The notes below the pieces were generated by a model, which saw nothing but the letters and a program-made list of their open reading frames with translations, did not search any database and was not told the origin of the DNA. From positions 1,440,001-1,504,000 of the forward strand of contig CAWANH010000029.1 of assembly GCA_963783375.1 (NCBI GenBank): 64,000 nucleotides of DNA, in the 5' to 3' direction. The DNA is from Candidatus Eiseniibacteriota bacterium. Lineage in GTDB: Bacteria; Eisenbacteria; RBG-16-71-46; JABDJR01. This document shows positions 12,421-32,912 of the stretch, piece after piece. A program made the translations under genes and the position numbers. Position 1 is the stretch's first letter. The number at the start of each line of letters is the position of its first letter.

Positions 12421-12443
12421 CGCCCCGCTCTTCCCTCCGATGG

Positions 12444-12839
12444 CTAATCGAAAGTGACCAGCACCTGACCCTGCTGGACCGTGGCTCCCACCTCGATCCG
12501 CACCGAACGGACTCTCCCTCCGGAGGGGGAGGCGATGTCGCTGTTCATCTTCATCGCCTCCAGCACCAGAAGGACGTCGTTGGCCTTCACCGTGTCCCCG
12601 GGTTTGACGTTCACTTTCTTGACCGTCCCCGCCATCGGACTCACCACCGTCTTCCGATCCACCCGCTCCCCCGGTCCGGGGGCCGGGGGGGGAGTCCGGG
12701 GGAGGACGCTCTGGGCGGAGCTGACCAGTTCCCGCCGTTCCAGGCGATTGGCCGGAGACGGGTTGGCCTCGTCATCCTCCAGAAGCTCCACCTCCACCTC
12801 GTAGCCCACTCCATTCACCGTCACCCTGAACCGCTTCAT
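12444..12839 (-). CDS. mmdC: Biotin carboxyl carrier subunit
   Basis: MKRFRVTVNGVGYEVEVE, Pro-rich linker, LEAMKM biotinylation motif. Confidence 0.9.
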   Translation of the reverse strand: MKRFRVTVNGVGYEVEVELLEDDEANPSPANRLERRELVSSAQSVLPRTPPPAPGPGERVDRKTVVSPMAGTVKKVNVKPGDTVKANDVLLVLEAMKMNSDIASPSGGRVRSVRIEVGATVQQGQVLVTFD

Positions 12840-13177
12840 GGTTCCCTCCGCACCACCGCGTGTGACGCCATGACCTGGAGCCTCCCCATTCGGCTCCAGG
12901 ATCCCTCCCGGCCCCGCAGGTACCGCACGGTGCGGACCCGGGCCGGGGAGCCCGCGGCGACTTCCACCGCCGCGGCGATCACCGCCACGGTCTCCGGGGA
13001 GATTCCGTCGGGCTCGTCCCCCGCGCGGCGGTCGGCCTCGGCCTGGAATCGTCGCTGGGTGAGGGTCCGCCGCCATCGCTCGGCCCGCCCGATGGCCCCC
13101 ATGACCAGGGCGAGGAGGCTCAGGGAGGCGAAGGTCACCACCAACCCGAGCAGCGCGATGAGAAGTCCCTGTCTCAA
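12836..13177 (-). CDS. OadG/MmdD-like membrane anchor subunit
   Basis: N-terminal TM helix, ETVAVIAAAV, WSRMGR; position within the decarboxylase operon. Confidence 0.8.
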   Translation of the reverse strand: MRQGLLIALLGLVVTFASLSLLALVMGAIGRAERWRRTLTQRRFQAEADRRAGDEPDGISPETVAVIAAAVEVAAGSPARVRTVRYLRGREGSWSRMGRLQVMASHAVVRREP

Positions 13178-13194
13178 TCATTCCCCCTCAGGGT

Positions 13195-14745
13195 TCAGAG
13201 CGGCATGGTCCCGTGCTTCTTCGGCGGCCGGAGTTCCCGCTTGTTGCGGAGCGTCTCCAGAGCGAAGGACACGTACTCCCGAGTATCCCGTGGCTCGATC
13301 ACGTTGTCTATGTGCATCCGGGCCGCGGCAAGGTAGGGCGACGCAAAGCGCTCCCGGTATTCCTCGATCCGGTCCGCCTTCAGAGCGGCGGGGTCCGCGG
13401 AGGCCGCGATCTCCCGTCCGTAGATGATCTGCACCGCGCCTTCGGCTCCCATCACCCCGATCTCCGCGGTCGGCCAGGCGAAGACGCGGTCCGCCCCCAT
13501 GCTCTTCGCGCACATGGCCAGGAACGACCCGCCGTAGGCCTTCCGGGTCACCAGGGTGATCTTGGGGACGGTGGCCGCGGCATAGGCGAAGAGCATCTTG
13601 GCCCCGTGCCGGATGATGCCGCCGTACTCCTGCTTCACGCCGGGCATGAAACCGGGCACGTCCACGAAATTCAGAAGCGGAATGTTGAAGGCGTTGCAGA
13701 AGCGGATGAACCGGGCCGCCTTGACGCTGGCGTTGATGTCGAGGGCCCCGCTCATGATCATGGGTTGGTTGGCCACCACCCCCACCGTCCTTCCCTGAAT
13801 CCGGGCGAAACCCACCACGATGTTGGGGGCGAAGTGTTCGTGCACTTCCAGGAAGTCCCCGTCATCCACCACGCGTAGAATGATCGAGCGCACGTCGTAG
13901 GGCTGGCGCGGGTCATCGGGGATGAGGGAGTCCAGGGCGGGATCGCTCTCGTACACCAGCGTCCCTTCCGGCGGACCGGGGGGATCGAGGGTGTTGTTTC
14001 CGGGAAGGAAGGAGAGGAGCCGGCGCACCAGCCGGACCGCGTCCTCCTCGTCCTCGGCCAGGAAGTGGGCCACCCCGCTGAGCGAGGTCTGCACTTCGGC
14101 CCCTCCCAGGTCCTCGGCGGTCACCTCCTCGCCCGTCACCTCCTTGATCACATCGGGGCCGGTGATGAAGAGTCGGGAGATCCCCTTGACCATGATGATG
14201 AAGTCGGTGATGGCCGGAGAGTATGCCGCTCCCCCGGCGCAGGGTCCCACGATCACCGAGATCTGGGGGACCACGCCCGAGAGCAGGGTATTCCGGTAGA
14301 AGATCCCCCCGTAGCCGGCGAGGGCATCCACCCCCTCCTGGATCCGCGCCCCTCCCGAATCGTTGAACAGCACCACCGGCGCCCCACAGAGAAGCGCCTG
14401 GTCCAGGACACGGCAGATCTTCTCGGCGTGGATCTCGCCGGCGGTGCCGCCGGCCACGGTGAAGTCCTGGCTGGATACGAAGATCAGCTGGCCGTCCACC
14501 GCACCCGCGCCGCCGACCACCCCGTCGGCGGGCATTTCCCTGCCGGCCATGCCGAGATCGACCGCCCGATGGCGGGCGAAGGCGTAGAGTTCCTGGAAGG
14601 TGTCGCGATCGAGGAGAGCCCGGATCCGCTCCCGGGCGGTCCATTTCCCCGCCTGACGTTGCTTGGCCACGCGGTCGGGGCCGCCCATGGCCTCGACCCG
14701 GGCACGCTCATGACCGAGTCTTTCGATCTTCTCCCGTGTCTTCAT
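13195..14745 (-). CDS. mmdA: Carboxyltransferase (methylmalonyl-CoA decarboxylase alpha / PccB family)
   Basis: GKWTARERI, QDFTVAGG, DSGGARIQEG, GPCAGGAAYSPA, DVPGFMPG, RKAYGG, KKHGTMPL. Confidence 0.9.
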   Translation of the reverse strand: MKTREKIERLGHERARVEAMGGPDRVAKQRQAGKWTARERIRALLDRDTFQELYAFARHRAVDLGMAGREMPADGVVGGAGAVDGQLIFVSSQDFTVAGGTAGEIHAEKICRVLDQALLCGAPVVLFNDSGGARIQEGVDALAGYGGIFYRNTLLSGVVPQISVIVGPCAGGAAYSPAITDFIIMVKGISRLFITGPDVIKEVTGEEVTAEDLGGAEVQTSLSGVAHFLAEDEEDAVRLVRRLLSFLPGNNTLDPPGPPEGTLVYESDPALDSLIPDDPRQPYDVRSIILRVVDDGDFLEVHEHFAPNIVVGFARIQGRTVGVVANQPMIMSGALDINASVKAARFIRFCNAFNIPLLNFVDVPGFMPGVKQEYGGIIRHGAKMLFAYAAATVPKITLVTRKAYGGSFLAMCAKSMGADRVFAWPTAEIGVMGAEGAVQIIYGREIAASADPAALKADRIEEYRERFASPYLAAARMHIDNVIEPRDTREYVSFALETLRNKRELRPPKKHGTMPL

Positions 14746-14977
14746 CCGTCGCCCTCCTCGGGGCCGGGATAAATCCGCGCCCCAGTTCCAGCCCACCATC
14801 TTAGGCCGGGGATGGTAGCGGGGGGAACACCCAGGAATCCTGACCATTTTTGTATTCTATGATTTCCGGTGAGGCCGCGGGATTCTTATTGCGATTGATT
14901 TCGTCCGCTTGTTGTCGACCCATCGCTTCGGTATAGTGCCGGTTGCGAGTTTGCGAACTCTTTCTCTCCGGAGAACC

Positions 14978-19096: not shown

Positions 19097-20074
19097 CTAG
19101 TGCACCGCGGCGGCGCTTGCCCCCATCCTCGAGAGACCCTCCTCGAGCAACGCCTTCGCGTAGTCGGGGTTGTGAACGCCCATGCTCTTGTCCTCGTGCA
19201 TGACGTAGAGCCAGTTGTAGAGCGCAATCCCCTGATCCTCGGGGGCCTCCGAGACGGTCGGATGCCCGTCCTCCGAGTTCTCGTTGATGAGGCCGGCGTT
19301 CACCAGCAACGCTCCGAGCTGGCTCCCCAGGTCCTCGATCTCGGTCTGCACGCCCTTGTAGTCGAAGCTCGTGGCCTCGGGGTGACAGCGCTGGCAGGTG
19401 GCCAGGGCGGGCTCGAAGTGGTGGTCATTGGTATCACCCATGTGACAATCGACGCAGGTGTTCGTCACCGCTCCGTAGTGCGGGCTCACGGTCCCCGTTA
19501 CACCGGCGCCGGCGACGCCGAGCAGCATGGCGCTCTGCGGACCGTGGTGCGGGCCCCAGTGGGAGCTGATACCGGTGATCACGCCGTTTTCCGCCACCGG
19601 GAAATCGCGACGCGGCTGGTGACAGTTGGCGCACAGGTTCCCCTCCCCGCCGTCGAAGGTCGCACCTTCGATGGAGGCGAGGTGAACCGGTTGCGCGGTT
19701 CTCAGCGAGAAGTCCGCCATCGAGTAGGTCTCGTGGATCATGTGACAGGCGCGGCAGTCCTGGCGCGTCGGGTCCGGCTGGCCCATCTCCACCTCGGTCG
19801 GGTTCTCCCCCGCCGCCACCATCTCCTGGAAGCCGTTCCCGGAGTGGCACCCGGCGCAACTTGCGCTGCTCGACCGCACGTAGGCCGTTCCGGTGCCGTG
19901 CACGGACTCCGCCCACTCGGTTTGCTTCCCGGTGATGATGCTGCTGGCGTTGTGGCAATCCGCGCAGGACAGCGGCTTGGTCGACTCGACGCGGGTGATG
20001 GTGCGATCACACGACTGGGCGCCGATCAGCACCGCGACTGCCCCGAGTGCTAGGATGGTTTTTGCGACGGACAT
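19097..20074 (-). CDS. Hexaheme c-type cytochrome lipoprotein (c552/OmcB-like helical C-terminus)
   Basis: Lipobox-like GAQSC; 6 CxxCH; WGPHHGPQ and GVHNPDYAKALL. Confidence 0.85.
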   Translation of the reverse strand: MSVAKTILALGAVAVLIGAQSCDRTITRVESTKPLSCADCHNASSIITGKQTEWAESVHGTGTAYVRSSSASCAGCHSGNGFQEMVAAGENPTEVEMGQPDPTRQDCRACHMIHETYSMADFSLRTAQPVHLASIEGATFDGGEGNLCANCHQPRRDFPVAENGVITGISSHWGPHHGPQSAMLLGVAGAGVTGTVSPHYGAVTNTCVDCHMGDTNDHHFEPALATCQRCHPEATSFDYKGVQTEIEDLGSQLGALLVNAGLINENSEDGHPTVSEAPEDQGIALYNWLYVMHEDKSMGVHNPDYAKALLEEGLSRMGASAAAVH

Positions 20075-20107
20075 CTAGGCCTCCTTCTTTTCCTTTTCTG
20101 CTTGCGC

Positions 20108-21676
20108 TTACTTCCCGTGCAGGTCGTAAGCGACGTTGAACCAGACCACATTGGCGGTGTAGTAGCGATCCAGGAGAATGTAATCGTCGTAGTTGTACAC
20201 GTTGTACTTGGCCTCGAGGTGAATGTCGTCCTTGACGGCGTATGCCCCCTCGAAGAAGAGAATCGACTTCTCGATATCCAGGTCGCCGCCCACGTTCAGG
20301 AAGGTGAGACCGCTGGAAAGACGCAGATCCTTGATCCTCTCCAGGTCCACCCGGCCGGTGACGCTGTTGTTCCAGGCCCGGAACCTCCCGGTGCGATCCT
20401 GGAACTCGTCGTTGGAATACTCGTAAGTCCCCGACAACCCGCCCCATCCGGCATAGGCGTACCGGGCGTATGCGGAGGCGACCTGTCCCGTGGCGCTGAC
20501 GTCGATATCGGGATAGTCCCGGTCACGAATACGGAATCCCGAACCGATCGAAAGACCCTTGACCGGGTTCACCTCCAGGTCGCCACGGAAATGGGCGGTC
20601 TCGATGTCCTTGAGAAGGGTCAGCTCCTCCTGGTCCTTCTTCAGCCTGCCCGCGTACCGGAACCTGGCGGTGAGGAGCTTGTTGTACCGGAAGGTCGTCG
20701 CCGCCCGCCAGCTGCTGTAGTACGTGAGGGAGACCTCGTCGTCGTTGGTCTCGTATCCGTAGCCGAGGGAGACGTCGCCGTACCGGTAGAAAACGGTGGC
20801 GTCGATGTCGTTGGTGAAGCGATCCGTCTTGAGATCGGTGGTCTGGTCGTCGATCCGCTGGGCTTCGAATCGGTACTCGAGGCGCAGGGGATCGACCGGA
20901 TCGATCAGGCCGGTGTACTGGAAATTGGCCAGGGTGTAGTCCAGGTCCCCGGTGGAGAGGTTGCTGACCCCGTAGGCCGCCCGCAAGAGGTGTGTCCACC
21001 TGTCGTAGAACATGCAGGGAGTCGCGATCCGGGCCGAGACGACCTGGCCGGTGCGGTCGGCGTCCGAGTTCCGCTGGTCGCTGAAGTCGGAGACGCGATA
21101 GTCGACGGCCAGAACCCTTCGGTTCTTCCGGGCCTCCGCCGACACACGGCCGGAGAGGAGGCCGCTGTCGTACCGGAGCCCCAGGGCGTCGGCGGTTCCG
21201 GGTGGATAGGATAGACGGTTCCCGGTCTGGGTGATGTAGCCCAGGGATCCCTCGAGTTTGATCCAGCGCTCCGGAGTGAATCGCGCGTTCAGGTTCCAGT
21301 TCCGCCGGTCGGACGTCGTGTTGCGGCCGGGGTCGAACACCTGGCGGTTTTGGGTGAGCGAAGCCGACAGCTTGAATCTGCCCGGTCGCCGGTAGAGCAA
21401 CTTCCCTTGACGACTGTCGAAGTTGATCTCCTTGAGGTCGATCATCAGGTAGTTGTCGGGATTCGGCGTTCCGGTCAGGCGGAGCTGGGTGATGGAGAAC
21501 CCGTCGTGGATGTTGTAGGTCTCCTGGACCGCGGACCGGTCCCCCACCTCATCGAGGATGACCCCGCCCAGTTTCACGGTCCCGGTCCACGCCCCCGCCC
21601 GAAGCGGAGCCGCCCCCAGGACGAAGATGAGCATGGCCATGAGTGTCGCTCGGGTCTTCATTCGCATTCGCACCAT
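20108..21676 (-). CDS. Outer-membrane beta-barrel porin, MtrB/PioB-like
   Basis: Signal peptide; alternating aromatic/hydrophobic beta-strands; terminal strand VWFNVAYDL; lies directly after a decaheme cytochrome. Confidence 0.75.
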   Translation of the reverse strand: MVRMRMKTRATLMAMLIFVLGAAPLRAGAWTGTVKLGGVILDEVGDRSAVQETYNIHDGFSITQLRLTGTPNPDNYLMIDLKEINFDSRQGKLLYRRPGRFKLSASLTQNRQVFDPGRNTTSDRRNWNLNARFTPERWIKLEGSLGYITQTGNRLSYPPGTADALGLRYDSGLLSGRVSAEARKNRRVLAVDYRVSDFSDQRNSDADRTGQVVSARIATPCMFYDRWTHLLRAAYGVSNLSTGDLDYTLANFQYTGLIDPVDPLRLEYRFEAQRIDDQTTDLKTDRFTNDIDATVFYRYGDVSLGYGYETNDDEVSLTYYSSWRAATTFRYNKLLTARFRYAGRLKKDQEELTLLKDIETAHFRGDLEVNPVKGLSIGSGFRIRDRDYPDIDVSATGQVASAYARYAYAGWGGLSGTYEYSNDEFQDRTGRFRAWNNSVTGRVDLERIKDLRLSSGLTFLNVGGDLDIEKSILFFEGAYAVKDDIHLEAKYNVYNYDDYILLDRYYTANVVWFNVAYDLHGK

Positions 21677-21680
21677 CCTA

Positions 21681-22640
21681 CTACTGGTGACAGCCTGATT
21701 TGAGACAGCCTTGGTCCCTGAGCGACTCGCTCAGGAAGTTCCGGCTGGTGTAGGAACCGTGAATGTCCACGTGGCAGTCGTTGCACGGAATGTCGGCCCA
21801 TCTGGTTCCGTGATGGGAGTTCATCTGGTGTAGCGGGACGGTGTGGCACTGCTTGCACAGCTGGAAGTTCGGAGCCTCGTAGGGCTGCTTGAGCATCCGC
21901 GGCAGGTAGGACCCGTGGGGGTCGTGACAGTTCATGCAGCCCCCCTCCTCCGTGGAGTAATCCACCGTCGCCTGGTGCTCGTAGGGGAACGGTCCCTGGA
22001 ACTCGCCGTGGCAGCTCGTGCACATCTCGCTGCCGTTCCTGGACATGTCCCGGGAGCCGGCGTCCAGGGTCTTGTGACAATCGGCGCAGTTCATGACTCC
22101 GTCATCGACCGGATGCCGGAAGGGCTTGGCGAACTGATTTCCCACCGCGGTGTGGCACCCCAGGCACAGATCGGGCTGCGCTTTCCTGAGGAGCGGAGGC
22201 TGGGTGGAAGCGTGGACGCTGTGACAGCCGCTGCAGTTCACGTCGCTCCGGGCGTGGACGTTCTTTTCCATCATGTTTTGCTGGTGGCTGTTCAGGTGGC
22301 AGGTGGAGCAGATCTTGCCTTCGACCGCCGCGCTCAGGGCGGCGGGAACCGGCATCGGATACTGCTCCGGGTCCTCCTCGTAGTGACGAGAGTCCCCGCG
22401 GTGGCAATCGGTGCAGGCTACCCGGACATCGGCTCCCTGATCGGATTCCCGGGCCACCCGATGGGGGGTCAGTGCGAGTGAATCGGCCATTCCCTCATGG
22501 CACGTCAGGCATGTTTCGGTTTCACGGGGGTAGTCCCCGGCGGAGGGATCCGGCTGCGATCCGGCGAGAAGAACGATGACAAAAGGAACAAGGAATAACA
22601 CCGGCACGTAGCGACGCAGTTCCTTGGCTTGCTCTTTCAA
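21681..22640 (-). CDS. DmsE/MtrA-family decaheme cytochrome c
   Basis: 10 CxxCH plus terminal CLKSGCH; QFAKPFRHPV, GPFPYEH, CMNCHDPHGS, CNDCHVDIHGS match the MtrA/DmsE pattern; TTG start after GGAGG. Confidence 0.88.
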   Translation of the reverse strand: MKEQAKELRRYVPVLFLVPFVIVLLAGSQPDPSAGDYPRETETCLTCHEGMADSLALTPHRVARESDQGADVRVACTDCHRGDSRHYEEDPEQYPMPVPAALSAAVEGKICSTCHLNSHQQNMMEKNVHARSDVNCSGCHSVHASTQPPLLRKAQPDLCLGCHTAVGNQFAKPFRHPVDDGVMNCADCHKTLDAGSRDMSRNGSEMCTSCHGEFQGPFPYEHQATVDYSTEEGGCMNCHDPHGSYLPRMLKQPYEAPNFQLCKQCHTVPLHQMNSHHGTRWADIPCNDCHVDIHGSYTSRNFLSESLRDQGCLKSGCHQ

Positions 22641-22687
22641 TGGGCCCCCTCCGAAGAAAGACCGCCTATGTAGCTCTTTCAGGGCGA

Positions 22688-22717
22688 AACGTACCAACAC
22701 CTTAACGGAGCCGTCAA
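22688..22717 (-). promoter_or_regulatory. Putative sigma70 promoter for the decaheme-porin-lipoprotein operon
   Basis: TTGACG-N18-TACGTT with TGn extension, in an AT-rich intergenic region. Confidence 0.45.
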
Positions 22718-22809
22718 AGTGCTTTTTCCGATTTGACTTATTCTTTTATCGTGTTCCGGAGGGAGATCTCCCCATTCAAACCTGGAATATGAGGTATCAA
22801 GAGAAAACA

Positions 22810-22826
22810 GATAATTCTTGTCATAA
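22810..22826. promoter_or_regulatory. Candidate regulator site (Fur-box-like), copy 1
   Basis: GATAATTCTTGTCATAA; near-identical to 33106-33122. Confidence 0.35.
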
Positions 22827-22862
22827 AATCTTTCCTCCGGAACCCGCCCGGGCGCGTTCCCC

Positions 22863-22898
22863 CGGGGGAAGGCCGCCCTGGAAAGCGGCCTCCCCCCG
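22863..22898 (-). terminator. GC-rich hairpin after the 42-heme cytochrome gene
   Basis: GGGGGAAGGCCGC...GCGGCCTCCCCC imperfect inverted repeat; no clear U-tract. Confidence 0.45.
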
Positions 22899-22911
22899 AG
22901 CCGTCGTACGC

Positions 22912-25900
22912 CTACGGCCCCGAGGGGGAACGCACCTGCATGTTCTCCCCCAGGTGGCACTGCATGCACAGGTCCCGGGTCTTGTCGTGGGTCAGGAGCG
23001 CCTCGAAGGGACTCGAGTGCGGGTCATGACAGGACGTGCAGGTGATGGCCAACCCGGTCCGGGGGTCCTTGGTCGGACCCTGGTAGGGGTGGAAGTGGCT
23101 CTTGGTCACATCGTCATGGCACTGGAGGCAGAGCTTTTCCTGAGGCTCGTTCAGGATGCCCCGGGTCGCGCTCCCGTGAGGGTCGTGGCAGGTGTCGCAG
23201 CCGCCCACGTCCGGGTGCTTGTACTCTCCGGCGAACATGGCCCGGTCATGGCAGGTGAAGCAGGTCGAGGCCTCGTCCTCACGCCTGAGAAGCGACGCCG
23301 TCCGCCCGGCATGGGGGGAGTGGCAGTTGAGGCAGGCCAGCTTCTCGGTCACCGCGGGGTGGACCACCGGCTTCTCGGCGTCCTTGGCATGGCCGCCGTG
23401 ACAGGTGACGCAGAGCGCCGCTCCCTCCGCCTTCAGCCCGTTCTGCCCGGCGTGGCACGCCATGCAGTCCTTCTGGGCGTAGGGGGCGTGGTTGAAGGCC
23501 AGGACGAGGCCCGGCTCGGTCGAGCCGTGGGGATCGTGGCAGCTCGTGCAGTCCCCCTTCCCCGCCTCGAACCCACGGTGCCTGGCTTTGAAGGCGGAGG
23601 CGGTCTCGTCGTGGCACTGCCCGCACAGGGCCTTGGCCGGCTCGGCCAGGAGCCCCTTCACCGTCCCCACGTGGGGGTCGTGACAGGTCTGGCAATCCCC
23701 TTCCTTGGCCGGGGGATGGGCGTTGGCCAGCCGGCTCCGCTCGGCGACCGCCGGGTGGCAGTCGGCGCAGAGGCCCGGAGCCGCCTCCTTGAGGAGTCCG
23801 GGCATGACCCCCTCGTGCCCGCCGTGGCAGACCCGGCAGTTCCCATCCCGGACCGGGCTGTGGACCAGGTCGGGGTCGGCCTTCTTGATCCGCCCGCCCG
23901 GGTCGTCATGGCACCGGGCGCAGAGTCCGGGCCCCGAGTCCACGAGCAGGGTCGAGTCGGCGGCGGCATGGGGATTGTGGCAGCTCGCGCACTCCCCCGC
24001 CTCCACCGGGGCGTGAAGTCCCTTGGGGGGCGCCGGGGCCTCGATCGCCCCGTGGCAGGACCCGCAGAGCTCGACCTGGGAGTCCACCAGCTCCACCTTC
24101 CCCCCCGGGGACTGGGGCTTGTGGCAGGTGGAGCAGGACCCCGGGCCGAAGGGCTCGTGGCGGACCGCTCGCAGGAGCCCCTTTTCCCGGCTCCGATGCG
24201 GATCGTGGCAGGATAGGCAGCTTCCCCCCTCCGGGGCGAAGTTGTCGTGGAGCTTCCTGAAATCCCGGTCCCCCACGTCGTGGCAGGAGCTGCAGGGGTT
24301 CTTCAGCGCCACCAGCCCGTCGGCGCCCTTGGTCTGGTGGGGATCGTGGCAGACCTCGCAGTTCCCCTCCTTCACCGGGGGATGGACGGTCCCGCTGTCC
24401 AGGGAGTCCTTCATCGCGGTGTGGCAGGTGAAGCAGATCTCGCCCTTGGCCGCCCTCAGGAAGGGCGGTCCGTCGGCGGTCCCGTGGGGATTGTGGCAGT
24501 CGGCGCACTTTCCCTCCGCCGCCGGCTCGTGGAGGGTCGCGGGGGGAAGATCGGCGGTCACCTCGCTGTGGCAGCCCCCGCAGAGCTCGGCGGCCGGGCT
24601 CACCAGGAGTCCGCGATTGGTCCCGCCGTGCGGCCGGTGACAGTCGGTGCACTCACCCTCGGCGAAGGGCGGGTGGGGGCTCGCCACCCTGAGCTCGTCG
24701 ACCTGCCTCGCGTGGCAGGGCAGACAGACCAGGGGCTGCTTCTGGACCAGGATGGCCGGGTTGTCGCTCCCGTGAGCCTGGTGGCAGTCGGCGCACCCGT
24801 TCCCGGCGAAGGGGAAGTGCACCACCGGGAGCTTCCGCTCCCCGGCGGTGTCCTCATGGCAGGAAAGACAGGTCACGTCCTCGGCCTGGGTCAGGAGATG
24901 CGGCTGGGTGCTGACGTGCGCGGTGTGGCAGGCGCGGCAATCGTCCTGGAGCGGGGCGTGGGGCACCTTGACCGAATCGGCGGCGGCGATCACGTCCTGG
25001 TGGCAGGACGCGCAGAGGTCCGGCGAGGCCTTTCGCAGCATGGCCTTCCCGCCGCCCCCGTGGGGGGCGTGACAGGCGTCACAGGCCAGGGCCTCGAACG
25101 GGGCGTGCCGCGACACCAGGTCCTTCTGGTCGCGCGGGTCCTCATGGCAGACGAAGCAGAGATCCTCGGCGTTTCCCTTGAGCAGGAACCTACGGTCCGC
25201 GCTGTGGGGATCGTGGCAGAACAGGCAGTCGCCTTCCGCCGCGGGAGGATGGCCGCCCGGCCCCGCGGCGGTTTCCCCCACGTCGGAGTGGCAGGTCACG
25301 CAGAGATCTTCCTTCGACGCGGTGAGCTCCCCGGGCTTGTCCGGCAGGCCGGCGTGGCAGGCCTGGCAGTCCGCCTCGGCGTAGGGAGCGTGCACGTATC
25401 CCCGGTTCTGGTCCGTGCTGGTTGAACCGTGGGGATCGTGGCACGATGAACAGGACGCGCCCGCTACCTCCGGTCGAGCATGGAGTTCCGGCAGCTCCGA
25501 TACGGGACCGTGGCAGCGGGCGCAAAGCTCTTTCTCGGGCGCGACCAGAAGGTTCGCGTTGGCCGAGTTGTGGGGAAGGTGGCACTCGGAGCACTTCCCC
25601 TCCTCGAAGGGTTTGTGTTTCCGGGTGGAGGCGATGGCCGCCTTGAGCTTGGGATGGCAGGAGGCGCAGGTCTCGGCTTCGGGACCGCGGAGCAGCCCCT
25701 TCTGGTCCGAGGCATGGGGATCATGGCAGCCGTCACAGGTGACCCCTTCCACCGCCAGATGATCCGAGCCCGAATCCGGGGCCACCTTCACGTCCTGGTG
25801 GCAATCCGTGCAGAGCTGGGGGAAGTCCTTCTGAAGGATCAGCGACTGGGCGAAGCCGTGCCGCTTGTGACAGGACTCGCAGTCCTCCTGCGCCGTCGGG

Positions 25901-26076
25901 ATGTGAACGACCTTCTTCCCCTTGAACTCGTCCCGGGCCTTCTGGTGGCAGTCGTAGCAGGGGCGTCGCTGGAGCGCCTCGCTTCGGCCGGCGAATTCCG
26001 GCAGGAAGAGCCCGGCCGCCACGGCCAGGACCACGAACCCGAGGCCGACGACGGCGGTGCGAACGCGGGGAACCAT
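22912..26076 (-). CDS. Giant 42-heme c-type cytochrome (paired-CxxCH repeat type)
   Basis: 42 CxxCH counted in ~1054 aa; N-terminal hydrophobic signal or anchor; repeat HxP..CxxCHxPH..LL..LCxxCH; start at MVPRVR after GAGGAG. Confidence 0.93.
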   Translation of the reverse strand: MVPRVRTAVVGLGFVVLAVAAGLFLPEFAGRSEALQRRPCYDCHQKARDEFKGKKVVHIPTAQEDCESCHKRHGFAQSLILQKDFPQLCTDCHQDVKVAPDSGSDHLAVEGVTCDGCHDPHASDQKGLLRGPEAETCASCHPKLKAAIASTRKHKPFEEGKCSECHLPHNSANANLLVAPEKELCARCHGPVSELPELHARPEVAGASCSSCHDPHGSTSTDQNRGYVHAPYAEADCQACHAGLPDKPGELTASKEDLCVTCHSDVGETAAGPGGHPPAAEGDCLFCHDPHSADRRFLLKGNAEDLCFVCHEDPRDQKDLVSRHAPFEALACDACHAPHGGGGKAMLRKASPDLCASCHQDVIAAADSVKVPHAPLQDDCRACHTAHVSTQPHLLTQAEDVTCLSCHEDTAGERKLPVVHFPFAGNGCADCHQAHGSDNPAILVQKQPLVCLPCHARQVDELRVASPHPPFAEGECTDCHRPHGGTNRGLLVSPAAELCGGCHSEVTADLPPATLHEPAAEGKCADCHNPHGTADGPPFLRAAKGEICFTCHTAMKDSLDSGTVHPPVKEGNCEVCHDPHQTKGADGLVALKNPCSSCHDVGDRDFRKLHDNFAPEGGSCLSCHDPHRSREKGLLRAVRHEPFGPGSCSTCHKPQSPGGKVELVDSQVELCGSCHGAIEAPAPPKGLHAPVEAGECASCHNPHAAADSTLLVDSGPGLCARCHDDPGGRIKKADPDLVHSPVRDGNCRVCHGGHEGVMPGLLKEAAPGLCADCHPAVAERSRLANAHPPAKEGDCQTCHDPHVGTVKGLLAEPAKALCGQCHDETASAFKARHRGFEAGKGDCTSCHDPHGSTEPGLVLAFNHAPYAQKDCMACHAGQNGLKAEGAALCVTCHGGHAKDAEKPVVHPAVTEKLACLNCHSPHAGRTASLLRREDEASTCFTCHDRAMFAGEYKHPDVGGCDTCHDPHGSATRGILNEPQEKLCLQCHDDVTKSHFHPYQGPTKDPRTGLAITCTSCHDPHSSPFEALLTHDKTRDLCMQCHLGENMQVRSPSGP

Positions 26077-26077
26077 G

Positions 26078-26629
26078 TTACTTCTCCTCGGCGCTGGGAG
26101 GTTCGTAGCCATGAACTTCCTTGAGCTGGAACGTGAAGAACGATTTCGGCGAGAAGTGAGGCGGGAAGTTCAGGAACGCCCACGAGCTGTCGACCGCCGC
26201 CCCCTCCTTGAACACCAGCACGTGGACGGCCGGGTTCTTCATTTCCATGGAGAAGTTCACCGGCTTGCCGCCGGCGATCTTGAAGTCGGGCATGAAGCCG
26301 CTCACCCGGGCGGTGTAGGGAGTGTCCCCCAGGTACATCGTCTCGCCGAGCTTCACGGTGTGGGACTCGCTCCAGCTCGGGTACATCCGGTTTCCCACCT
26401 CGAGGCCGAAGCTCAAGGTGGTGTCGGCCGCGATGGCCGCGGTGTCGGCTCCGGTTTCGGGCCCCGTGGTCCTGGGAAGCGAGCGAAGGATGGCGGCGGC
26501 GCCCGAGTCCGGCGACGCCTCCTCGGGGTGGACGGCCGCCGAATCCGCCGGCGCGTCCTGGGATCGGGCCCCGTCCGCCCAGGCCCAGACCAGGAGTCCC
26601 AACCCCACCGCGATCAAGATCCGTCTCAT
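26078..26629 (-). CDS. Exported protein, DUF2155/ResB-periplasmic-like
   Basis: Signal peptide MRRILIAVGLGLLVWAWA; GFMPDFKI..SMEMKNPAVHV..W.F..FP resembles Geobacter DUF2155 proteins as recalled. Confidence 0.6.
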   Translation of the reverse strand: MRRILIAVGLGLLVWAWADGARSQDAPADSAAVHPEEASPDSGAAAILRSLPRTTGPETGADTAAIAADTTLSFGLEVGNRMYPSWSESHTVKLGETMYLGDTPYTARVSGFMPDFKIAGGKPVNFSMEMKNPAVHVLVFKEGAAVDSSWAFLNFPPHFSPKSFFTFQLKEVHGYEPPSAEEK

Positions 26630-27282
26630 CCGATCCCTCCCTTTCCCGGCGCCACACCCACGTCCGTCCGGTCCGACTCTCCCGTGTCCTTCGGGGGCGG
26701 CGAGCTCGACGCTCCGGCGCCGCCCCGGACCGGAGGCAGGGTGGAGAGAATCCCCTCCACGGTTTCCGAAGCCAATCGCTCCAGGCTGGACACCCGCCCG
26801 ATACCGAACACGCTTTCCTTGTCCCCGCCGTCCCGGCTGTACACCGCACTCCAGAGCACCTTCCCCCCGGGCACCTCCAGGAGCCGGAGAGACACCGAAA
26901 CCTGGGGCACCTGGCTTCCGTCCGCATCCCGATAGCCGTAGGCGAGGACCGACCCCACCAGGAGCGCGTTGGCCCCCATCTCCACCCCCAGTGAATCCAC
27001 CAGGTCCGGGGGCAGGCGGTCGGTCATGATCCACGGCTGCTTGGAGAGCGCAGCCTCCATACGTCCCACATCCACCACCGCGATCCCGCGGTGCTCGGCC
27101 AGGGCCACCGCGAGCATCGGGGCAAGCCGGTCGGGAGCGTCCCGGGTCGGCGTGTAGTTGGCCAGGGGAAGGATCCCCACCCGCCAGCTTCCGCTCAAGG
27201 GCTCCGCAACGTACGCCCGAGGCCCCGGCGCGCAGCCGGCCAGGACCAGGATGATGGCCGCGAGAACCGTCTTCCGGGTCAT
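26626..27282 (-). CDS. Lipoprotein, CsgG/PelC/GNA1162-like fold
   Basis: Lipobox LAGC; VGILPLANYT, LLVGSVLAYG, VSVSLRLLEVPGGKVLWS. Confidence 0.75.
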   Translation of the reverse strand: MTRKTVLAAIILVLAGCAPGPRAYVAEPLSGSWRVGILPLANYTPTRDAPDRLAPMLAVALAEHRGIAVVDVGRMEAALSKQPWIMTDRLPPDLVDSLGVEMGANALLVGSVLAYGYRDADGSQVPQVSVSLRLLEVPGGKVLWSAVYSRDGGDKESVFGIGRVSSLERLASETVEGILSTLPPVRGGAGASSSPPPKDTGESDRTDVGVAPGKGGIG

Positions 27283-27869
27283 CAGCGCCTCGCTCGCGGA
27301 AGTGAGGACAGAAGTCCCCGGCAGACGTCGGCGGTGAGGGTTTCCATCAGCCGCACCCCTCCCCAGCCGAGGATGGGGAAACCGGCCCCGCCCTTCCGGG
27401 TCTCGCTCGCGCTCCAGACCAGGCGGCCGGTGGCCGCGTCCACCAGGCGCACCTCGATGGAAAACAGTGGATAGGAATCGCGCCCGGAGCTCACCATCTC
27501 GTACTGCCGCACCGTGCCCATGAAGATCCCCTGCACGCCCGCCTTTTCTCCCAGTTGGGCCAGTTGTTCGGTCGACCAGGGAGTCTCGGCGGGGATCCCC
27601 CCGCGGATCTGGGTCATGTCCGCGGCGAACTGTCCGGGTTCCACCACCTCGGCGAACCCCCGTTCCAGGAGCTCGGTGAAGAACACGTTGGTGACCCGGT
27701 ATCCCGCGGCCCGATCCTGGGCGAGGCTGGTGAAGGGGATGATGCCCACCCTCTCGTAGAAAGGCAGGTCGGCCTCGGGGTTCAGGAACCGGGTCGGACC
27801 CCCGCAACCGGAGACGGCGATGAGCGTCGTCGCCACCAGGAGCGCTCGGAGCCTCGAAACGTTGTTCAT
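27282..27869 (-). CDS. Lipoprotein, CsgG/PelC/GNA1162-like fold (paralog)
   Basis: Lipobox VSGC; VGIIPFTSL, IFMGTVRQYE, IEVRLVDAATGRLVWSAS. Confidence 0.78.
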   Translation of the reverse strand: MNNVSRLRALLVATTLIAVSGCGGPTRFLNPEADLPFYERVGIIPFTSLAQDRAAGYRVTNVFFTELLERGFAEVVEPGQFAADMTQIRGGIPAETPWSTEQLAQLGEKAGVQGIFMGTVRQYEMVSSGRDSYPLFSIEVRLVDAATGRLVWSASETRKGGAGFPILGWGGVRLMETLTADVCRGLLSSLPRARR

Positions 27870-27887
27870 GAAGTTCTCGCTTCCCGT

Positions 27888-29464
27888 CTAGAAATTCCGG
27901 TCCACCGAGAGACCGTAGGTGTCCAACGTGGCCCGCCCCCGGACCGCGACCTGTCGCCAGGAAAGCTGAACCCGGGTGCGACGGGCAGGCCAGAAAGTGA
28001 AGTCGGTTCCCTTGATGATCTCGGAGGAGCGCGAGGTGAGGACCAGGGCCTCCCGCCGGGACCAGTCGAGGGAGAGGGAGGTGCGCTGGCCGAGCCGCAG
28101 GTTCCCGGTCAGGCTCCCGTAGCGTTCTTCGCGGTCGATCCGGCCCCGTCCGTTCTGGCGCCGGTAGGTCGCCACCAGGTCCGCCCCCGTGGCCGGCTGG
28201 TACCCGACCTGGTACTCCCACTGGCGATCGGTCTGGGCCCTCCCGTCGATTTCGGGGAGGGTGTCCCTCCGCCAGGTGACCTCGAACCGGGTATCCCGGC
28301 TGGGAAGGGTGCGGAGCTGGATCAGGCGATGCCACTGGGTTCCGGTGGAGACCGAGCCCCCCGCGCGCGACGCCCGGAGCTCGGCGCGGGCGTTGATTCC
28401 CTTGCGGAGGAGGCCGTCCACCAGGGTGAAGACGGTGTTCTGGGGGATCGAGCCGTCTTCGGAGCGGATGTTGAAGGAGCGGAGGTAGCCGGACTGGAAG
28501 GTCATCCCCCGAACGATCTCCCGCCGGAAAATGGCCTGGAGACGAGCGTAGTCCGCTTCGATGTCTCCGTCCACGGCCTGGCGCCGTCGATACTCCCGGA
28601 GCCCTTCGAGGCTCAGCCCCTTCACCGGCTGGTAGGCCAGGCGCCCGCTCAGGTAGCGTTCGTTGATGGTCTGATCGGCGGTCAGGGCATTGTCCTGACT
28701 CCGCCCCCAGTACACCAGCGCCGAGGTACCGACGGTGAACCGCCGGGAAGGCGCCCAGCTCGAGTTCAGGTTCATTCGCTGGGTGTAGAAGGTCCGGTCC
28801 CGGTCCCGGGAACCGAAGGTGGAGTAAAGGGCGTCGTAGGTGGCCTGGGCGTTGGCCCGGCCGAGATTGACCCCGGTCCGGAGCCCCCCCGCCACTCCTC
28901 GGTCCGGGTGTCGGGGTTCAGCCCTCCCATGGGGCGGGCGTCCAGTCTCCGCCAGGAAAGGTTGCTTCCGAAAACCCCGCCGGCGGCGTAGGAAACCTCG
29001 GCCCGGCGATCGTCGGTGGTGGAGCGGCCCTGAAGGGTCTCCCGATCCTGGCGTTCGTACTTCAGCGCCATCCTCGGGGCGCCGCGCGGGCTCACGTCGA
29101 GACCGAAAAGCAGGTTCCGGTCCCGGGACGTGCTAACGCCCACCGACGTCTGCTGCCAGGGGGTGAACTGGGTGGTGAGACGCCAGGCAGGCTTTCTGAG
29201 GTCGGCGAAGAAACGGGAGCTCAGGAGGTCCGAGTTCTCTTGTCCCGGGTTCGCCCGGTAGGAGAGGGACATGCGGAGCCTGAGGTCGGCGCTTCCGGGG
29301 AGCACGGCGCGCGTGCTCAGGTCGTAGTAGTGGCGCATGACGTCCGCGTCCGCTATTCCCGAGGTGTGGTGGTACGAACCCACGTAGCGACCCTCGTAGG
29401 CCCCGGCCCCCGCCGGAACGGCCAGAGTCGCCCCGGCCAGGATGAGCGCCGCCCACCGGTGCAT
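27888..29464 (-). CDS. Outer-membrane beta-barrel protein, split by a frameshift at a G7 tract (28884-28890)
   Basis: Signal peptide MHRWAALILAGATLAVPAGAGA; beta-strand pattern in both halves; C-terminal YGLSVDRNF; adding one G joins ...EEWRGG to LRTGVNLG. Confidence 0.75.
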
Positions 29465-30642
29465 CAGGGTCCTCCCCGTCCCCACGGGCTCGGGCTTCCC
29501 GGTGCGCCGTTACCGGGCTCGCCCGGATTGTGAACGTTGTGGGAGGTGGGACCGGAGTAGTCGCGGCCGTGGCAGTCGTAGCAACTCTGGAAGCCGGTGG
29601 AGCGATGGGGGCCCCGGTCGGAGAGGGTGTTCATGACGATTCCCTCCACCGTCTGCGCCCCGGGAATCCCGTCCGAGGCGATGTGGCAGCCGAGGCAGAA
29701 CCGGCGGCACTGGGTCGCGTCGTTCACGGTGTCGGTGAGCCCGCTCCAGTCAACCCGCTCGTCGCTGATCAGGTATCCGTTCGGCTGCACCCGGTTGTGC
29801 CCCTCGGAACCGTGGGGATTGTGGCAGTCGTAGCAGGGGAGCATGTCCCCGACCTGGATGTGCGCGGGCCAGGAGAGGGCGACCCGGGATTCCTTCCGGA
29901 TCTGGTGGCCGGCGTGCTCGCCGTTCAACCCCGCGTCGTAGTAGTCCGCGATGTTCCGGTTCGCGGGGTCCATGCCTCCCGGCGCGTCCTGGTCGTGGCA
30001 GGAGAAGCAAAGCGCGTATTCCTCGGGAGATCCCACCGCGGCGTGGCCGCCGATCCCCCCGTAGGGCTTCAGCAGGAGGTCGCGACGATTCGGGGTGCCG
30101 TGAGGATCGTGGCAGTTCTCGCAACGCCCCTCTCCCGAGGCGTCTCGCCGGGGCATGTCGGGGTCCTGGGCGTGAGGCGAAAAGAAGTGACCCCCGGGCG
30201 TGATTCCCGGATCGGTGTAGGCGGTCTCCCCCGGCCAGCGGCCGCGATAGTTCACGCCGACCAGGCGCTCCCCGCCGGTGTTGGCCTCGAAGTAACCGGC
30301 GTCGGGTTCGGACTCGGGCATGCGGTCGGATTCGCCGAGGGGGTAATTGCCGGGACGGCGGCGGTGGCACGGTTCTGCCCCCTGGTCCCAGAAGGCGAGC
30401 TGGTTGGTGTTCTCGGTGAAGAGGAGGAGCGGATAGGGGGAGGGCTCCCACGCGTCGCCGTGGGGAGGATGGCACTGCTGGCACTGCCCCCGGGCCTGAT
30501 CGGCGTCACGGAGCACCCCGGTCTGCGGGTCCCCATGGGGATCGAAGGGCGTGTCCGCGGATATGTTCCAAGCAGCCAGAAGCAGGGCCGCCGTGAGAAC
30601 CATGCCGGAAACGGGTCTCACACCAAGCTCCCCCGGCCGCAA
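29464..30642 (-). CDS. Exported hexaheme c-type cytochrome with widely spaced hemes
   Basis: Signal peptide; 6 CxxCH plus a lone PCH; start uncertain (30642 or 30603). Confidence 0.85.
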   Translation of the reverse strand: MRPGELGVRPVSGMVLTAALLLAAWNISADTPFDPHGDPQTGVLRDADQARGQCQQCHPPHGDAWEPSPYPLLLFTENTNQLAFWDQGAEPCHRRRPGNYPLGESDRMPESEPDAGYFEANTGGERLVGVNYRGRWPGETAYTDPGITPGGHFFSPHAQDPDMPRRDASGEGRCENCHDPHGTPNRRDLLLKPYGGIGGHAAVGSPEEYALCFSCHDQDAPGGMDPANRNIADYYDAGLNGEHAGHQIRKESRVALSWPAHIQVGDMLPCYDCHNPHGSEGHNRVQPNGYLISDERVDWSGLTDTVNDATQCRRFCLGCHIASDGIPGAQTVEGIVMNTLSDRGPHRSTGFQSCYDCHGRDYSGPTSHNVHNPGEPGNGAPGSPSPWGRGGP

Positions 30643-30670
30643 TGTCGAAACGGGAAGGCAATGATGGACC

Positions 30671-30714
30671 GGATTCGGGCACCGGCAGTGGCCGGATTGT
30701 CGGTGCCCGAATCC
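30671..30714. terminator. Strong stem-loop directly downstream of the omcS-like gene
   Basis: GGATTCGGGCACCG / CGGTGCCCGAATCC perfect 14-bp inverted repeat. Confidence 0.65.
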
Positions 30715-30774
30715 CGTCGAAACGGGGAGGCCGGGCGCGCTAGCGCTTCGGCCGCCCTAATCCACCACCAGGCT

Positions 30775-31845
30775 TTACTGGGCCTGGGTGTGGCACTGAC
30801 CGCAGAGGGCGCGGGCCGAAGTCCCGTCGTCGCCCTGCTCGGTCACCGTGCCGGTGCCGATCATGTAGATCAGGCCGAACGCGTTCTGGTTGCCGTGGCC
30901 CTTGTGGCACGACATGCAGGACTGCGTGAGGCCGGTGTCGGTCCCGTCGTATGCGCCGGCCTTCTGGCCGGTGGGCGACATGACCTGGACCTGGTTGGTC
31001 TTCCCGGTCAGGAAGGCCAGACCGGAGTGACCGCCGCCCAGGGCGCCGATGTCGACACCCGCCGCCGGGTGACGCACGAAGTCCGCGGGAGGAGCTCCCG
31101 TGCCGCCGATCTCCGCCCCGCCGATGTCACCGTGGAAGTTGGTGTGGCAGGCCTTGCAGAAGGAGGCATAGGCGGACGCGGTCGTCACCGGCTCGTTGAA
31201 GGTGATCGCCCCGACCCCGTAGTGGTTGGCGCTGGTGCCGCTGGAGGCATTCTCGTACACCCACTTGGTGAGATCGTTGGCACCCTCGACGTCGCCGCGG
31301 GAGTAGGTCAGGAGGGTCGAGATCCCGCTCAGCGGAGGACCATAACCGCCCAGGTTCCGATAGGTATTGACGTGAGCCGAGTTGCCGCCGTGGGGCGAAT
31401 GGCAGTCGGTGCACTTCAGACCATCGGGATCGCTGAACGTGCCGCCCGGAGCCACGGCCAGCGAGTTCAGGGTGTGCCCGGTGGTCGGCGGATAGAGACC
31501 GTTGCCGCCCAACTCGTTCAGGGCACCCGCCTGACGGACATAGCCGTTGGTGTGGGTTTCGAACACGTCCGGCGCGAGCGCCTGCCCATCGTGGCAGGCC
31601 AGGCACAGGTTGTTGATATCGTCACGGAGCAGGAACTCGAACGGGCCGCCCGGTCCGAGCGGCGTGTAGAAGCCCGATCCGTTGGGGTTGTATCCATGGC
31701 TCTGGCTGTAGTGCATGACGTGGCAGTCGGAGCAGATCAAGGCCGAGCCGGTGTGATAATCACCGGCGAATCCGACGGACACGAGCACGGTCAGAGCGAG
31801 GAGAATCCCCGGACCAAGGAGGAGTTTCTTCCTCATAGCCACCAT
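30775..31845 (-). CDS. omcS: OmcS-like hexaheme cytochrome (candidate nanowire subunit)
   Basis: After the signal peptide: YH..CSDCHVMH, CLACH, GH..APGGT..LKCTDCHSPHG, YRNLGG, FCKACHTNFH, RHPA, CMSCHKGH, RALCGQCH; same order as recalled G. sulfurreducens OmcS. Confidence 0.8.
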   Translation of the reverse strand: MVAMRKKLLLGPGILLALTVLVSVGFAGDYHTGSALICSDCHVMHYSQSHGYNPNGSGFYTPLGPGGPFEFLLRDDINNLCLACHDGQALAPDVFETHTNGYVRQAGALNELGGNGLYPPTTGHTLNSLAVAPGGTFSDPDGLKCTDCHSPHGGNSAHVNTYRNLGGYGPPLSGISTLLTYSRGDVEGANDLTKWVYENASSGTSANHYGVGAITFNEPVTTASAYASFCKACHTNFHGDIGGAEIGGTGAPPADFVRHPAAGVDIGALGGGHSGLAFLTGKTNQVQVMSPTGQKAGAYDGTDTGLTQSCMSCHKGHGNQNAFGLIYMIGTGTVTEQGDDGTSARALCGQCHTQAQ

Positions 31846-32912
31846 TACCTCCCTTGCACGGTTGCGAGACCGATTCCGGAGACTCCGGAACCGCTTTGCT
31901 CCACATGATCGCGGGCCCCCGTCACGGGAGGCACGGCCACCTGGAGCACCTGGCAGCGGGCGCCCGCCCGCTCCAAGACTGCGAGCCGGTCCGCGGCCAG
32001 AAAGGCGCACGCGACCGGATAGTTGAACTGGCCGGGGCCGTGGCCGAAGCCACCGATGCGGCCCAGGTAACCGCCCCGGCGATCGAAGACGCTGATCGAG
32101 TGACGGATGGTGTCCACCACCCAGAGGTTCCCGTTGGGGCCCCAGGTCGCTCCCACGGCCATCGAGAAGGTGCCCTCACCCTCGCCGTGCTCGCCGAACG
32201 CGAAAAGCGGGGTGCCGTCGGTGGCGTTGACCAGGACCGACTTCTCACCCATGGGGTCCACCACCGCCATCATGGTCTCTTCTGCGTTCACCGCCAGAGC
32301 CACCGGCGAGGTGAACGGGCCCTTCTCCACCGGTCCGAAGCCCAGGCTTACCAGCGGCTCACCCACCGGATTCAGCACCACCAGGCCGGGGCGGTTGCCG
32401 GAACAGAGCACGTAAATGCGCCCGCTGCGTCCGATCACCACGTCCTGGAGATGGACCTTGGTGGTGAGCTCGGCGGGAAAGATGGGACGGAACGAGGTGA
32501 TGTGCGATCCCTGGGAGGTCATGACCTCGATGTAGTCGCTGAGCTGGTCGGCCACGAACATGCGGCCGTGATCGTCCAGCGCCACCGAGGCCGGCTCCGC
32601 GCTCGACCCCGCCGATCTGCGGATCTCGTAGTCCAGGGTACCCCGGGAGCGCCAGTTGGAGTCGAAGATGACCAGGCGGTGGTTCCCGGTGTCGGCGATC
32701 ACCACCACCCCCCGGGTGCTGTCGGCCACCATGCCCCGAGGGCGGCGGAAGGCGTCGAGCGGGGCGGGACCGGTGACGATGTCGAGGACGTTGAGGATGG
32801 AGGGGGCGGGATCTTCGGGGATGGGCTCCGCGGGGTAGGCCGGAACCGCGGCCACGGCCGAAGCCGAGGCGGCAAGAACCAGGCACAGTACCGCTCCGCG
32901 GAACGCAGACAT
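31845..32912 (-). CDS. NHL-repeat beta-propeller protein, exported
   Basis: FRRPRGMVAD..VIADTGNHRLVIFD; FGEHGEGEGTF; IGGFGHGPGQFNYP; signal peptide. Confidence 0.88.
   Translation of the reverse strand: MSAFRGAVLCLVLAASASAVAAVPAYPAEPIPEDPAPSILNVLDIVTGPAPLDAFRRPRGMVADSTRGVVVIADTGNHRLVIFDSNWRSRGTLDYEIRRSAGSSAEPASVALDDHGRMFVADQLSDYIEVMTSQGSHITSFRPIFPAELTTKVHLQDVVIGRSGRIYVLCSGNRPGLVVLNPVGEPLVSLGFGPVEKGPFTSPVALAVNAEETMMAVVDPMGEKSVLVNATDGTPLFAFGEHGEGEGTFSMAVGATWGPNGNLWVVDTIRHSISVFDRRGGYLGRIGGFGHGPGQFNYPVACAFLAADRLAVLERAGARCQVLQVAVPPVTGARDHVEQSGSGVSGIGLATVQGR

Follow-up and report, generated by a model that had tools for sequence, protein, structure and literature searches.

Does a run of eight minus-strand genes in an Eisenbacteria genome encode an OmcS-type cytochrome nanowire together with its own machinery for assembly and export? 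The run occupies positions 22,912 to 32,912 of a 64,000-nucleotide stretch of DNA (the window; positions 1,440,001 to 1,504,000 of contig CAWANH010000029.1, assembly GCA_963783375.1, Candidatus Eiseniibacteriota bacterium), and the initial annotation read it as a compact, divergent version of the Geobacter sulfurreducens omcS neighbourhood. In Geobacter this neighbourhood is the osc cluster (GSU2505-GSU2493), and a 2025 review calls nanowire secretion, anchoring and charging unresolved (PMC12307469). Our analysis favours, with moderate confidence, a conserved and streamlined osc subtype that would build an OmcS-type filament, export or anchor it through a barrel and a PelC-like ring, and charge it through a 42-heme wire. 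The homology and order of six of the eight genes, the fold and histidines of the first hexaheme cytochrome, the 26+16 make-up of the giant cytochrome and a ResB-type domain carry this reading; from them we infer filament formation, export and the feeder role.

For the Geobacter cluster, oscC has been assigned to GSU2501, oscI to GSU2495 and oscJ to GSU2494, and the proposed roles are secretion (OscE, OscF, OscG), folding (OscH) and morphology (OscD) (PMC13194489). The remaining osc letters are used here according to gene order.

An eight-gene run on one strand

32912-31845, minus: NHL propeller, 355 amino acids (aa), signal peptide; counterpart of the propeller at the GSU2505 position, upstream of omcS
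31845-30775, minus: hexaheme A, 356 aa, 6 CxxCH; OmcS-family cytochrome, likely the filament subunit
30625..30774, minus: stem-loop between hexaheme A and B (z -2.53; 2 of 200 shuffles fold equally well)
30621-29464, minus: hexaheme B, ~385 aa, 6 CxxCH; separate cytochrome family
29464-27888, minus: outer-membrane beta-barrel, ~525 aa; OscE counterpart
27869-27282, minus: lipoprotein 1, 195 aa; OscF counterpart, of a PelC-like, ring-forming family
27282-26626, minus: lipoprotein 2, 218 aa; paralog of lipoprotein 1
26629-26078, minus: small exported protein, 183 aa; occupies the position of the chaperone OscH
26076-22912, minus: giant cytochrome, 1054 aa, 42 CxxCH, signal peptide
22770..22911, minus: 18-bp stem-loop directly 3' of the giant cytochrome (z -2.94; 1 of 200 shuffles)

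All eight elements were located in the order first proposed. Of the seven junctions, four overlap, by 1, 1, 1 and 4 nucleotides (nt); two have gaps of 18 and 1 nt, and the remaining one, 3' of hexaheme A, has a gap of 153 nt. This gap contains a long stem, which may stabilise the upstream transcript. The 18-bp stem-loop past the giant cytochrome is a possible end of the transcription unit. It was not called in a terminator scan, and the promoter and terminator scans as a whole stayed at chance level (1 versus 1.2 expected; 7 versus 8.7).

In the window a 7-base homopolymer (28884-28890) interrupts the barrel gene, which appears as two open reading frames (ORFs), one at 29485-28772 and the other at 28895-27888. 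Contigs from four of four sequencing runs, belonging to three studies, carry one extra base at this homopolymer, indicating that the break is an assembly error and that there is one gene of ~525 aa. The same observation rules out a programmed frameshift or a pseudogene. The barrels of relatives L008 and L009 are 525 aa long.

Two sets of loci served for comparison. The first consists of 79 loci retrieved by scanning genomes with the hexaheme A alignment and taking the best 80 of 112 stretches; many of these loci are cut by contig ends. The second, the canonical set, consists of 73 metagenome loci fetched by OmcS motif as stand-ins for the G. sulfurreducens helpers, most of them short. Their canonical identity rests on locus L089, where OmcS matches 6EF8 with E 3e-158 and the neighbours keep Geobacter-like order and sizes (994, 471, 725, 192 and 397 aa, against 1017, 482, 725, 199 and 392 aa in Geobacter).

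Hexaheme A and the propeller resemble OmcS and its partner

The first gene encodes an NHL propeller (Pfam NHL, E 1.5e-15) whose profile matches the propellers upstream of canonical omcS at 99.9% over 278 columns. The first hexaheme had been called OmcS-like, and several comparisons agree. A profile of 121 hexaheme A sequences gave OmcS (6EF8) as its sole significant match in the PDB (E 8.2e-6; next 0.12), and the profile-profile match to the canonical loci was 99.6%. A heme-free structural model (predicted local distance difference test score, pLDDT, 77) matched OmcS in Foldseek with E 7.9e-5 and a template modelling score (TM-score) of 0.40. With VIA, OmcS was the only one of 48,161 chains to reach Z>=5 (Z 12.5, root-mean-square deviation (rmsd) 3.7, 256 aligned). 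Further support is provided by the histidines: the six non-motif histidines of OmcS that are visible in the alignment all face a histidine in hexaheme A, and these are kept in 114-121 of 121 relatives. One conserved non-motif histidine of hexaheme A stands three residues after heme motif 1, at what we take to be the position of the OmcS inter-subunit ligand His16. A distal histidine that bridges subunits is a defining feature of OmcS (PMC12307469). Profile, Foldseek and VIA each rank OmcS first, well above other proteins, and by these measures hexaheme A belongs to the OmcS family.

RNA contigs covering hexaheme A were obtained from four of four RNA libraries, the two longest at ~97% identity; DNA carry-over is possible, and we take them as a weak sign of transcription in relatives. 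Such contigs are scarce over the barrel, lipoprotein and small genes, and were not used to rank expression, which contigs cannot do.

The same genome holds a second, distant OmcS-like gene with 7 CxxCH (L081, G000:C28:1145407-1146591). A second barrel or lipoprotein set was not found in the genome, and so the L081 product may share the same export machine.

The barrel and lipoproteins suggest an export module

The barrel profile matched the canonical barrels at 98.7% over 533 columns with 10% identity, whereas the window's other barrel, used as a control, reached 8.5%. Members of the barrel family have ~28 segments of alternating hydrophobicity, and 20 of 46 end in a C-terminal Phe. Pfam outer-membrane protein matches to the family are stray (3 of 46), and the barrel profile gave no significant match in the PDB, PelB included. 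Lipoprotein 1 has an invariant Cys22 (46 of 46) and matches the canonical lipoprotein at 99.9%; its profile also matches 5T11, 5T10, 5T0Z and PelC in 9H80 (E 1e-9 to 3e-6). Lipoprotein 2 matches columns 214-384, the C-terminal half, of the ~400-aa canonical second lipoprotein at 99.8%, and has weak GNA1162-like and CsgG Pfam matches below cut-off. From the sequence profile and the N-terminal lipidated Cys, the lipoproteins are assigned to the PelC family.

In the Pel system the export barrel bears a ring of 12 PelC subunits (PMC12141448), and PelC is the structural family closest to the lipoproteins. The likeness to the PelBC complex (PDB 9H80, 5T11, 5T0Z; PMC12141448) is that PelC-family lipoproteins are encoded beside an outer-membrane barrel. 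The differences are that here there are two lipoprotein paralogs, that the neighbours are cytochromes rather than polysaccharide genes, and that the barrel has no match to PelB.

The giant cytochrome joins a 26-heme and a 16-heme unit

In Geobacter, GSU2495 has 26 heme sites and GSU2494 has 16 (PMC3495685 supplement). Seven separate 26-heme proteins from the genome loci, and one from canonical locus L083, align best to hemes 1-26 of the giant cytochrome, while 8 of 11 rows of 16-heme proteins align best to hemes 26/27-42. For the 16-heme rows of L061 and L083 the hemes 26/27-42 register is a close second, and the row of L033 is a piece of a frameshifted giant. Fused and split forms share a spacing signature (28 at interval 8, ending 28-30, 24), and the spacing at the 26/16 junction of the giant is an ordinary 23 residues. 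By this alignment, the 42-heme protein consists of the 26-heme (OscI) and 16-heme (OscJ) units in one chain, in register, which predicts end-to-end joining of OscI and OscJ where they are separate. Among the 79 loci, a whole 42-heme ORF is found in 30, a 26+16 pair in 6 and a 25+16 pair in 1; other matches are cut, shorter or broken. The lipobox pattern occurs in 1 of 30 fused 42-heme proteins, and a 16-heme unit fused behind the 26-heme unit would have no lipid anchor of its own.

Elsewhere in the genome, at G000:C28:1119068-1127190, a 23-heme ORF is followed by a 51-heme ORF with a strict 16/25/33-residue repeat. Two frame-shifted pieces with this repeat, of 9 and 15 hemes, come next. These are perhaps one protein of at least 70 hemes, broken by assembly errors.

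Comparison with the Geobacter osc cluster and related operons

Comparison with the canonical loci found homology and synteny with the omcS companions for the propeller, hexaheme A, the barrel, both lipoproteins and the giant cytochrome, as had been proposed. The order shared with the Geobacter osc cluster is propeller, OmcS-type hexaheme, barrel, two lipoproteins, helper, then 26+16 hemes, with profile-level homology for each part except the helper. Geobacter has in addition a SurA-like peptidyl-prolyl isomerase (PPIase), a YVTN propeller, a spermidine-synthase-like gene and a second NHL gene, none of which is in this operon. The barrel is shorter (~525 versus 725 aa), as is the second lipoprotein (218 versus 392 aa), and this subtype differs further in that the 26- and 16-heme proteins form one chain and that the operon also encodes a free ResB domain and a hexaheme of a separate family. 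Three chaperone-slot proteins of the canonical set were tested, and all are of the SurA/PPIase type. Here OscH is not in the operon, and PPIase-type matches in the genome are unlinked (best E 5e-15). The OscD slot before the barrel holds hexaheme B, and genome matches to the OscD propeller are unlinked ORFs of 1999 and 1016 aa. On these comparisons we class the cluster as a variant subtype of osc that shares most of its genes and is without OscH and OscD.

The lack of OscD and OscH counterparts in the operon, the low identity to OmcS and a chain ~70 residues shorter would also fit an OmcS-like fold that makes no long filaments, with hexaheme A serving as a surface-tethered or periplasmic multiheme store. 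We consider this quite improbable, given that the histidine in the position that bridges subunits is kept, as is the complete module of barrel and lipoproteins.

Related gene sets are known from syntrophic sulfate reducers, where the core operon consists of the 26+16-heme pair, a propeller and a PPIase (PMC5539420), and from the OetABI cassette, which contains the same 26+16 pair with propeller and PPIase (PMC10553843). Like our locus, these combine genes for 26- and 16-heme cytochromes, a propeller, a barrel and OmcS-like proteins in a single cassette. They differ in that the four-gene core of the sulfate reducers has the PPIase that is absent here, the cytochromes are fused here, and no dsrA was found in the host genome.

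Hexaheme B appears to form a separate cytochrome family

The second hexaheme was compared with OmcS in the same ways. A genome search with the hexaheme A profile did not list hexaheme B at E<=0.01. Its model (pLDDT 88.6) gave no Foldseek match at E<=0.001 (OmcS E 0.94), and with VIA its best neighbour was MtrA (Z 6.9, rmsd 3.1, 161 aligned), with OmcS at Z 5.0 (rmsd 5.0, 200 aligned). The profile match to the OmcS family is partial (93%, 113 columns only), and the PDB profile search reached E 0.17. A plain OmcS paralog is thus not supported, the weak fold matches themselves not proving that the folds differ. An Atlas search with hexaheme B returned generic multiheme clusters only. Eight non-motif histidines are conserved in the protein, which also has an atypical seventh site of the CX8CH type (~30366-30396), whose CH is invariant in 121 of 121 sequences and whose first position is C in 76, A in 40 (the window copy included) and P in 5. 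In loci L026, L027, L030, L038, L039, L044, L045, L060 and L076, hexaheme B is the C-terminal half of a 12-heme protein, and a 9-heme protein occupies its slot in L051, L056-L058, L063-L065 and L074.

In an alternative reading, the barrel is an electron conduit filled by a cytochrome, either hexaheme B or the tail of the 42-heme chain, as in MtrAB or OetABI, with hexaheme A exported otherwise, for example by a secretin. In its favour, MtrA is the best structural neighbour of hexaheme B, the ~28 amphipathic segments suggest that the barrel matches cytochrome-filled porins in size, the genome has two secretins, and a homologous cassette has been read as a porin:cytochrome conduit (PMC10553843). 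However, a Z of 6.9 lies within the VIA background range, a PelC-type ring points to polymer export, and a separate MtrA-like module already adjoins the block. In addition, a 16-heme unit fused behind the 26-heme unit would not carry a lipid anchor of its own. We regard the conduit as unlikely and prefer export through barrel and ring.

The small protein resembles a free ResB/CcsB domain

The small exported protein had been labelled DUF2155-like. This label did not get beyond a lead: Pfam DUF2155 (PF09923) matched no family member in sets of 24 and 94 sequences and, below cut-off, a single one of 38 distant matches, and DUF2155-bearing clusters listed by Atlas at 0.83 are a lead only. A fragment of OscH or OscD was rejected, as no profile match was found to either (OscH 1.1%). 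When the small-protein profile was run against 1.84 billion proteins, 785 matches were returned. In the best 150, eight of the nine proteins longer than 300 aa were ResB-family proteins, matched one to three times per protein in stretches between membrane helices. Reciprocally, a profile of the ResB set returned the small ORF as the best among 37,892 ORFs of the genome (E 1.9e-12) and reversed-sequence controls gave no score; the test is partly circular, the ResB set itself having been found with the small-protein profile. From these matches, the protein is best explained as a free-standing ResB/CcsB periplasmic beta-domain. It has one N-terminal hydrophobic stretch and lacks the multi-helix architecture of full-length ResB. 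A search of the PDB gave no match, hence no sequence link to the solved CcsBA structures.

The likeness to ResB/CcsB of System II (PF05140; PMC13645880) is therefore to its repeated periplasmic stretches, and the difference is that here a single exported domain without membrane helices is encoded in a Ccm genome: the host has Ccm genes and no ResB (PF05140) match. The ResB domain had no matches in the 73 canonical-type loci. Of the 79 loci, 39 have the small protein and another 9 have OscH; none has both. In 38 of the 39 a multiheme gene directly follows the small gene. In a quick tree of lipoprotein 1, whose row labels include loci with a cut giant gene, one branch (Shimodaira-Hasegawa-like approximate likelihood ratio test 99) splits 56 rows without OscH from 24 canonical or OscH-bearing rows. 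The mutual exclusion of the small protein and OscH reflects two lineages, not independent events.

A structural paper leaves the role of an accessory CcsB barrel domain open (PMC13645880), and a ResB-domain protein offers a testable function for the periplasmic part of CcsB. A full ResB-like gene lies at L008:2807-4624, ~5 kb upstream of the operon in that locus. One database protein (P0327) joins the C-terminal part of the barrel to the small domain, possibly through a sequence error.

The subtype is conserved across phyla and accessory

The 79 loci span Eisenbacteria, Krumholzibacteria, Zixibacteria, Ignavibacteria, Gemmatimonadota, Latescibacterota, Glassbacteria, Acidobacteriota, Planctomycetota and others. 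By tblastn, 76 of these loci have the propeller, 65 have lipoprotein 1 and 63 lipoprotein 2, although searches with one lipoprotein also pick up the other. The giant cytochrome was matched in 61 loci and hexaheme B in 56, with 6 of the latter matches weak at 43-52 bits; the small protein, as above, is in 39. The gene order is not due to chance. Hexaheme B is present in 5 of 40 relatives. Close relatives occur in salt-marsh runs at 90-99% identity. The proposal of a compact, divergent version in another lineage is supported. No account of this subtype was found in the literature searched; a stand-alone ResB domain was not among the topics of that search, and the figures and supplements of Shen et al. 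2025, which possibly list FCB-lineage (Fibrobacterota-Chlorobiota-Bacteroidota) or fused variants, lay outside it.

Three genomes of the same genus were compared. In G007 a contig end cuts off the block, of which a part is present. In G008 the block is missing and its flanks are adjacent, with an MtrA-like gene directly after the c554 gene (L190, G008:C3:501000-510000). G006 keeps a remnant, a 41-residue piece of the giant cytochrome, 85% identical, that adjoins c554 (L191, G006:C7:1660000-1670000). These arrangements suggest loss of the block by deletion. Its absence from two of the three genomes makes the block accessory.

Flanking electron-transfer genes

35600-34089, minus: ImcH-like inner-membrane NapC/NirT cytochrome, 6 CxxCH plus a first CXXXCH, NapC/NirT Pfam match
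34001-33408, minus: tetraheme c554-type cytochrome, c554 Pfam match
19097..22700, minus: porin-cytochrome module downstream of the block, with an MtrA/DmsE-like decaheme, a second barrel-like protein and a further hexaheme

The block lies between the ImcH-like/c554 pair and the decaheme module and shares its strand with both. Together they have the appearance of a chain from quinol to the cell surface, ~16.5 kb long. Locus L002 keeps the order ImcH-like, c554, block, decaheme, barrel. ImcH has a NapC/NirT domain and seven motifs, the first of them CXXXCH (PMC4251993), and the upstream cytochrome is called ImcH-like for its match to this published description. The downstream decaheme has 10 CxxCH, matches MtrA chain 6R2Q_A with E 9.5e-25 and scores 181.8 bits against TIGR03508, below the cut-off of 192.2.

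A proposed route for electrons

Electrons from the quinol pool would pass through the ImcH-like protein and c554 to the 42-heme chain and so to the base of the barrel. The decaheme MtrA is ~8 nm long. Scaled from it, the 42-heme chain would measure ~30 nm, and the periplasm is less than 30 nm in most bacteria (PMC10954620); the giant cytochrome is likely a periplasm-spanning wire. Hexaheme A would polymerise head to tail through the histidine three residues after its first heme motif, and the wire would charge a filament held in, or passed through, the channel of barrel and ring. Hexaheme B may link wire, barrel and filament as an adapter or end-piece. The ResB-like domain may hold long apocytochrome chains while Ccm attaches heme, replacing the SurA-like chaperone.

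No direction of electron flow can be read from the sequence of a heme chain. The machine could work inward and draw electrons from partners or from reduced minerals, a direction that has been proposed for syntrophic sulfate reducers. In partners of methane-oxidising archaea, operons homologous to this one are expressed (PMC5539420, PMC10553843). But a gene for an ImcH-like quinol oxidase, a kind of enzyme that outward transfer to high-potential acceptors requires (PMC4251993), lies directly upstream, and dsrA was not found in this 97% complete genome. We rate inward flow as very improbable.

Several observations weigh against the outward, filament-building subtype that we favour. The identity of hexaheme A to OmcS is 19-24%, with the TM-score of 0.40 obtained on a heme-free model of pLDDT 77, and single-sequence PDB searches gave no OmcS match for either hexaheme (for hexaheme A, no match at E<=1). 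The barrel match has just 10% identity, and its control is a single sequence. The folding (OscH) and morphology (OscD) proteins are absent from the operon, and the two same-genus genomes in which the block was not found are 93% and 98% complete. The feeder need not be the giant cytochrome, since OmcS in Geobacter receives its electrons directly from small trihemes (PMC10954620). Homologs of the 26- and 16-heme proteins are reported as unexpressed during metal respiration in four cultured species (PMC5539420), and even in Geobacter the mechanism of OmcS secretion and anchoring is called speculative (PMC12307469).

A more far-reaching reading, which we put forward tentatively and think doubtful as a whole, is a second, ancient OmcS-nanowire architecture across FCB-allied phyla. 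It would combine a seamless 42-heme bridge across the periplasm, with OscI and OscJ as halves of one wire, a detached CcsB domain as dedicated heme-loading chaperone that lets Ccm mature very long cytochromes, and a new six-to-seven-heme cytochrome that docks the filament in the barrel.

This kind of system is already known, and the locus extends it rather than adding a new principle. Uncultured Eisenbacteria, Krumholzibacteria, Zixibacteria and Ignavibacteria join the likely users of OmcS-type electron transfer. That eight genes make up a natural version suggests that OscD, OscH and the second NHL gene are dispensable, and a set of this size would be easier to move into a laboratory host.

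Further along the window, at 11284-14847 (minus), lie genes for a sodium-pumping carboxyl-transferase, biotin carrier and beta-subunit of the methylmalonyl-CoA decarboxylase type.

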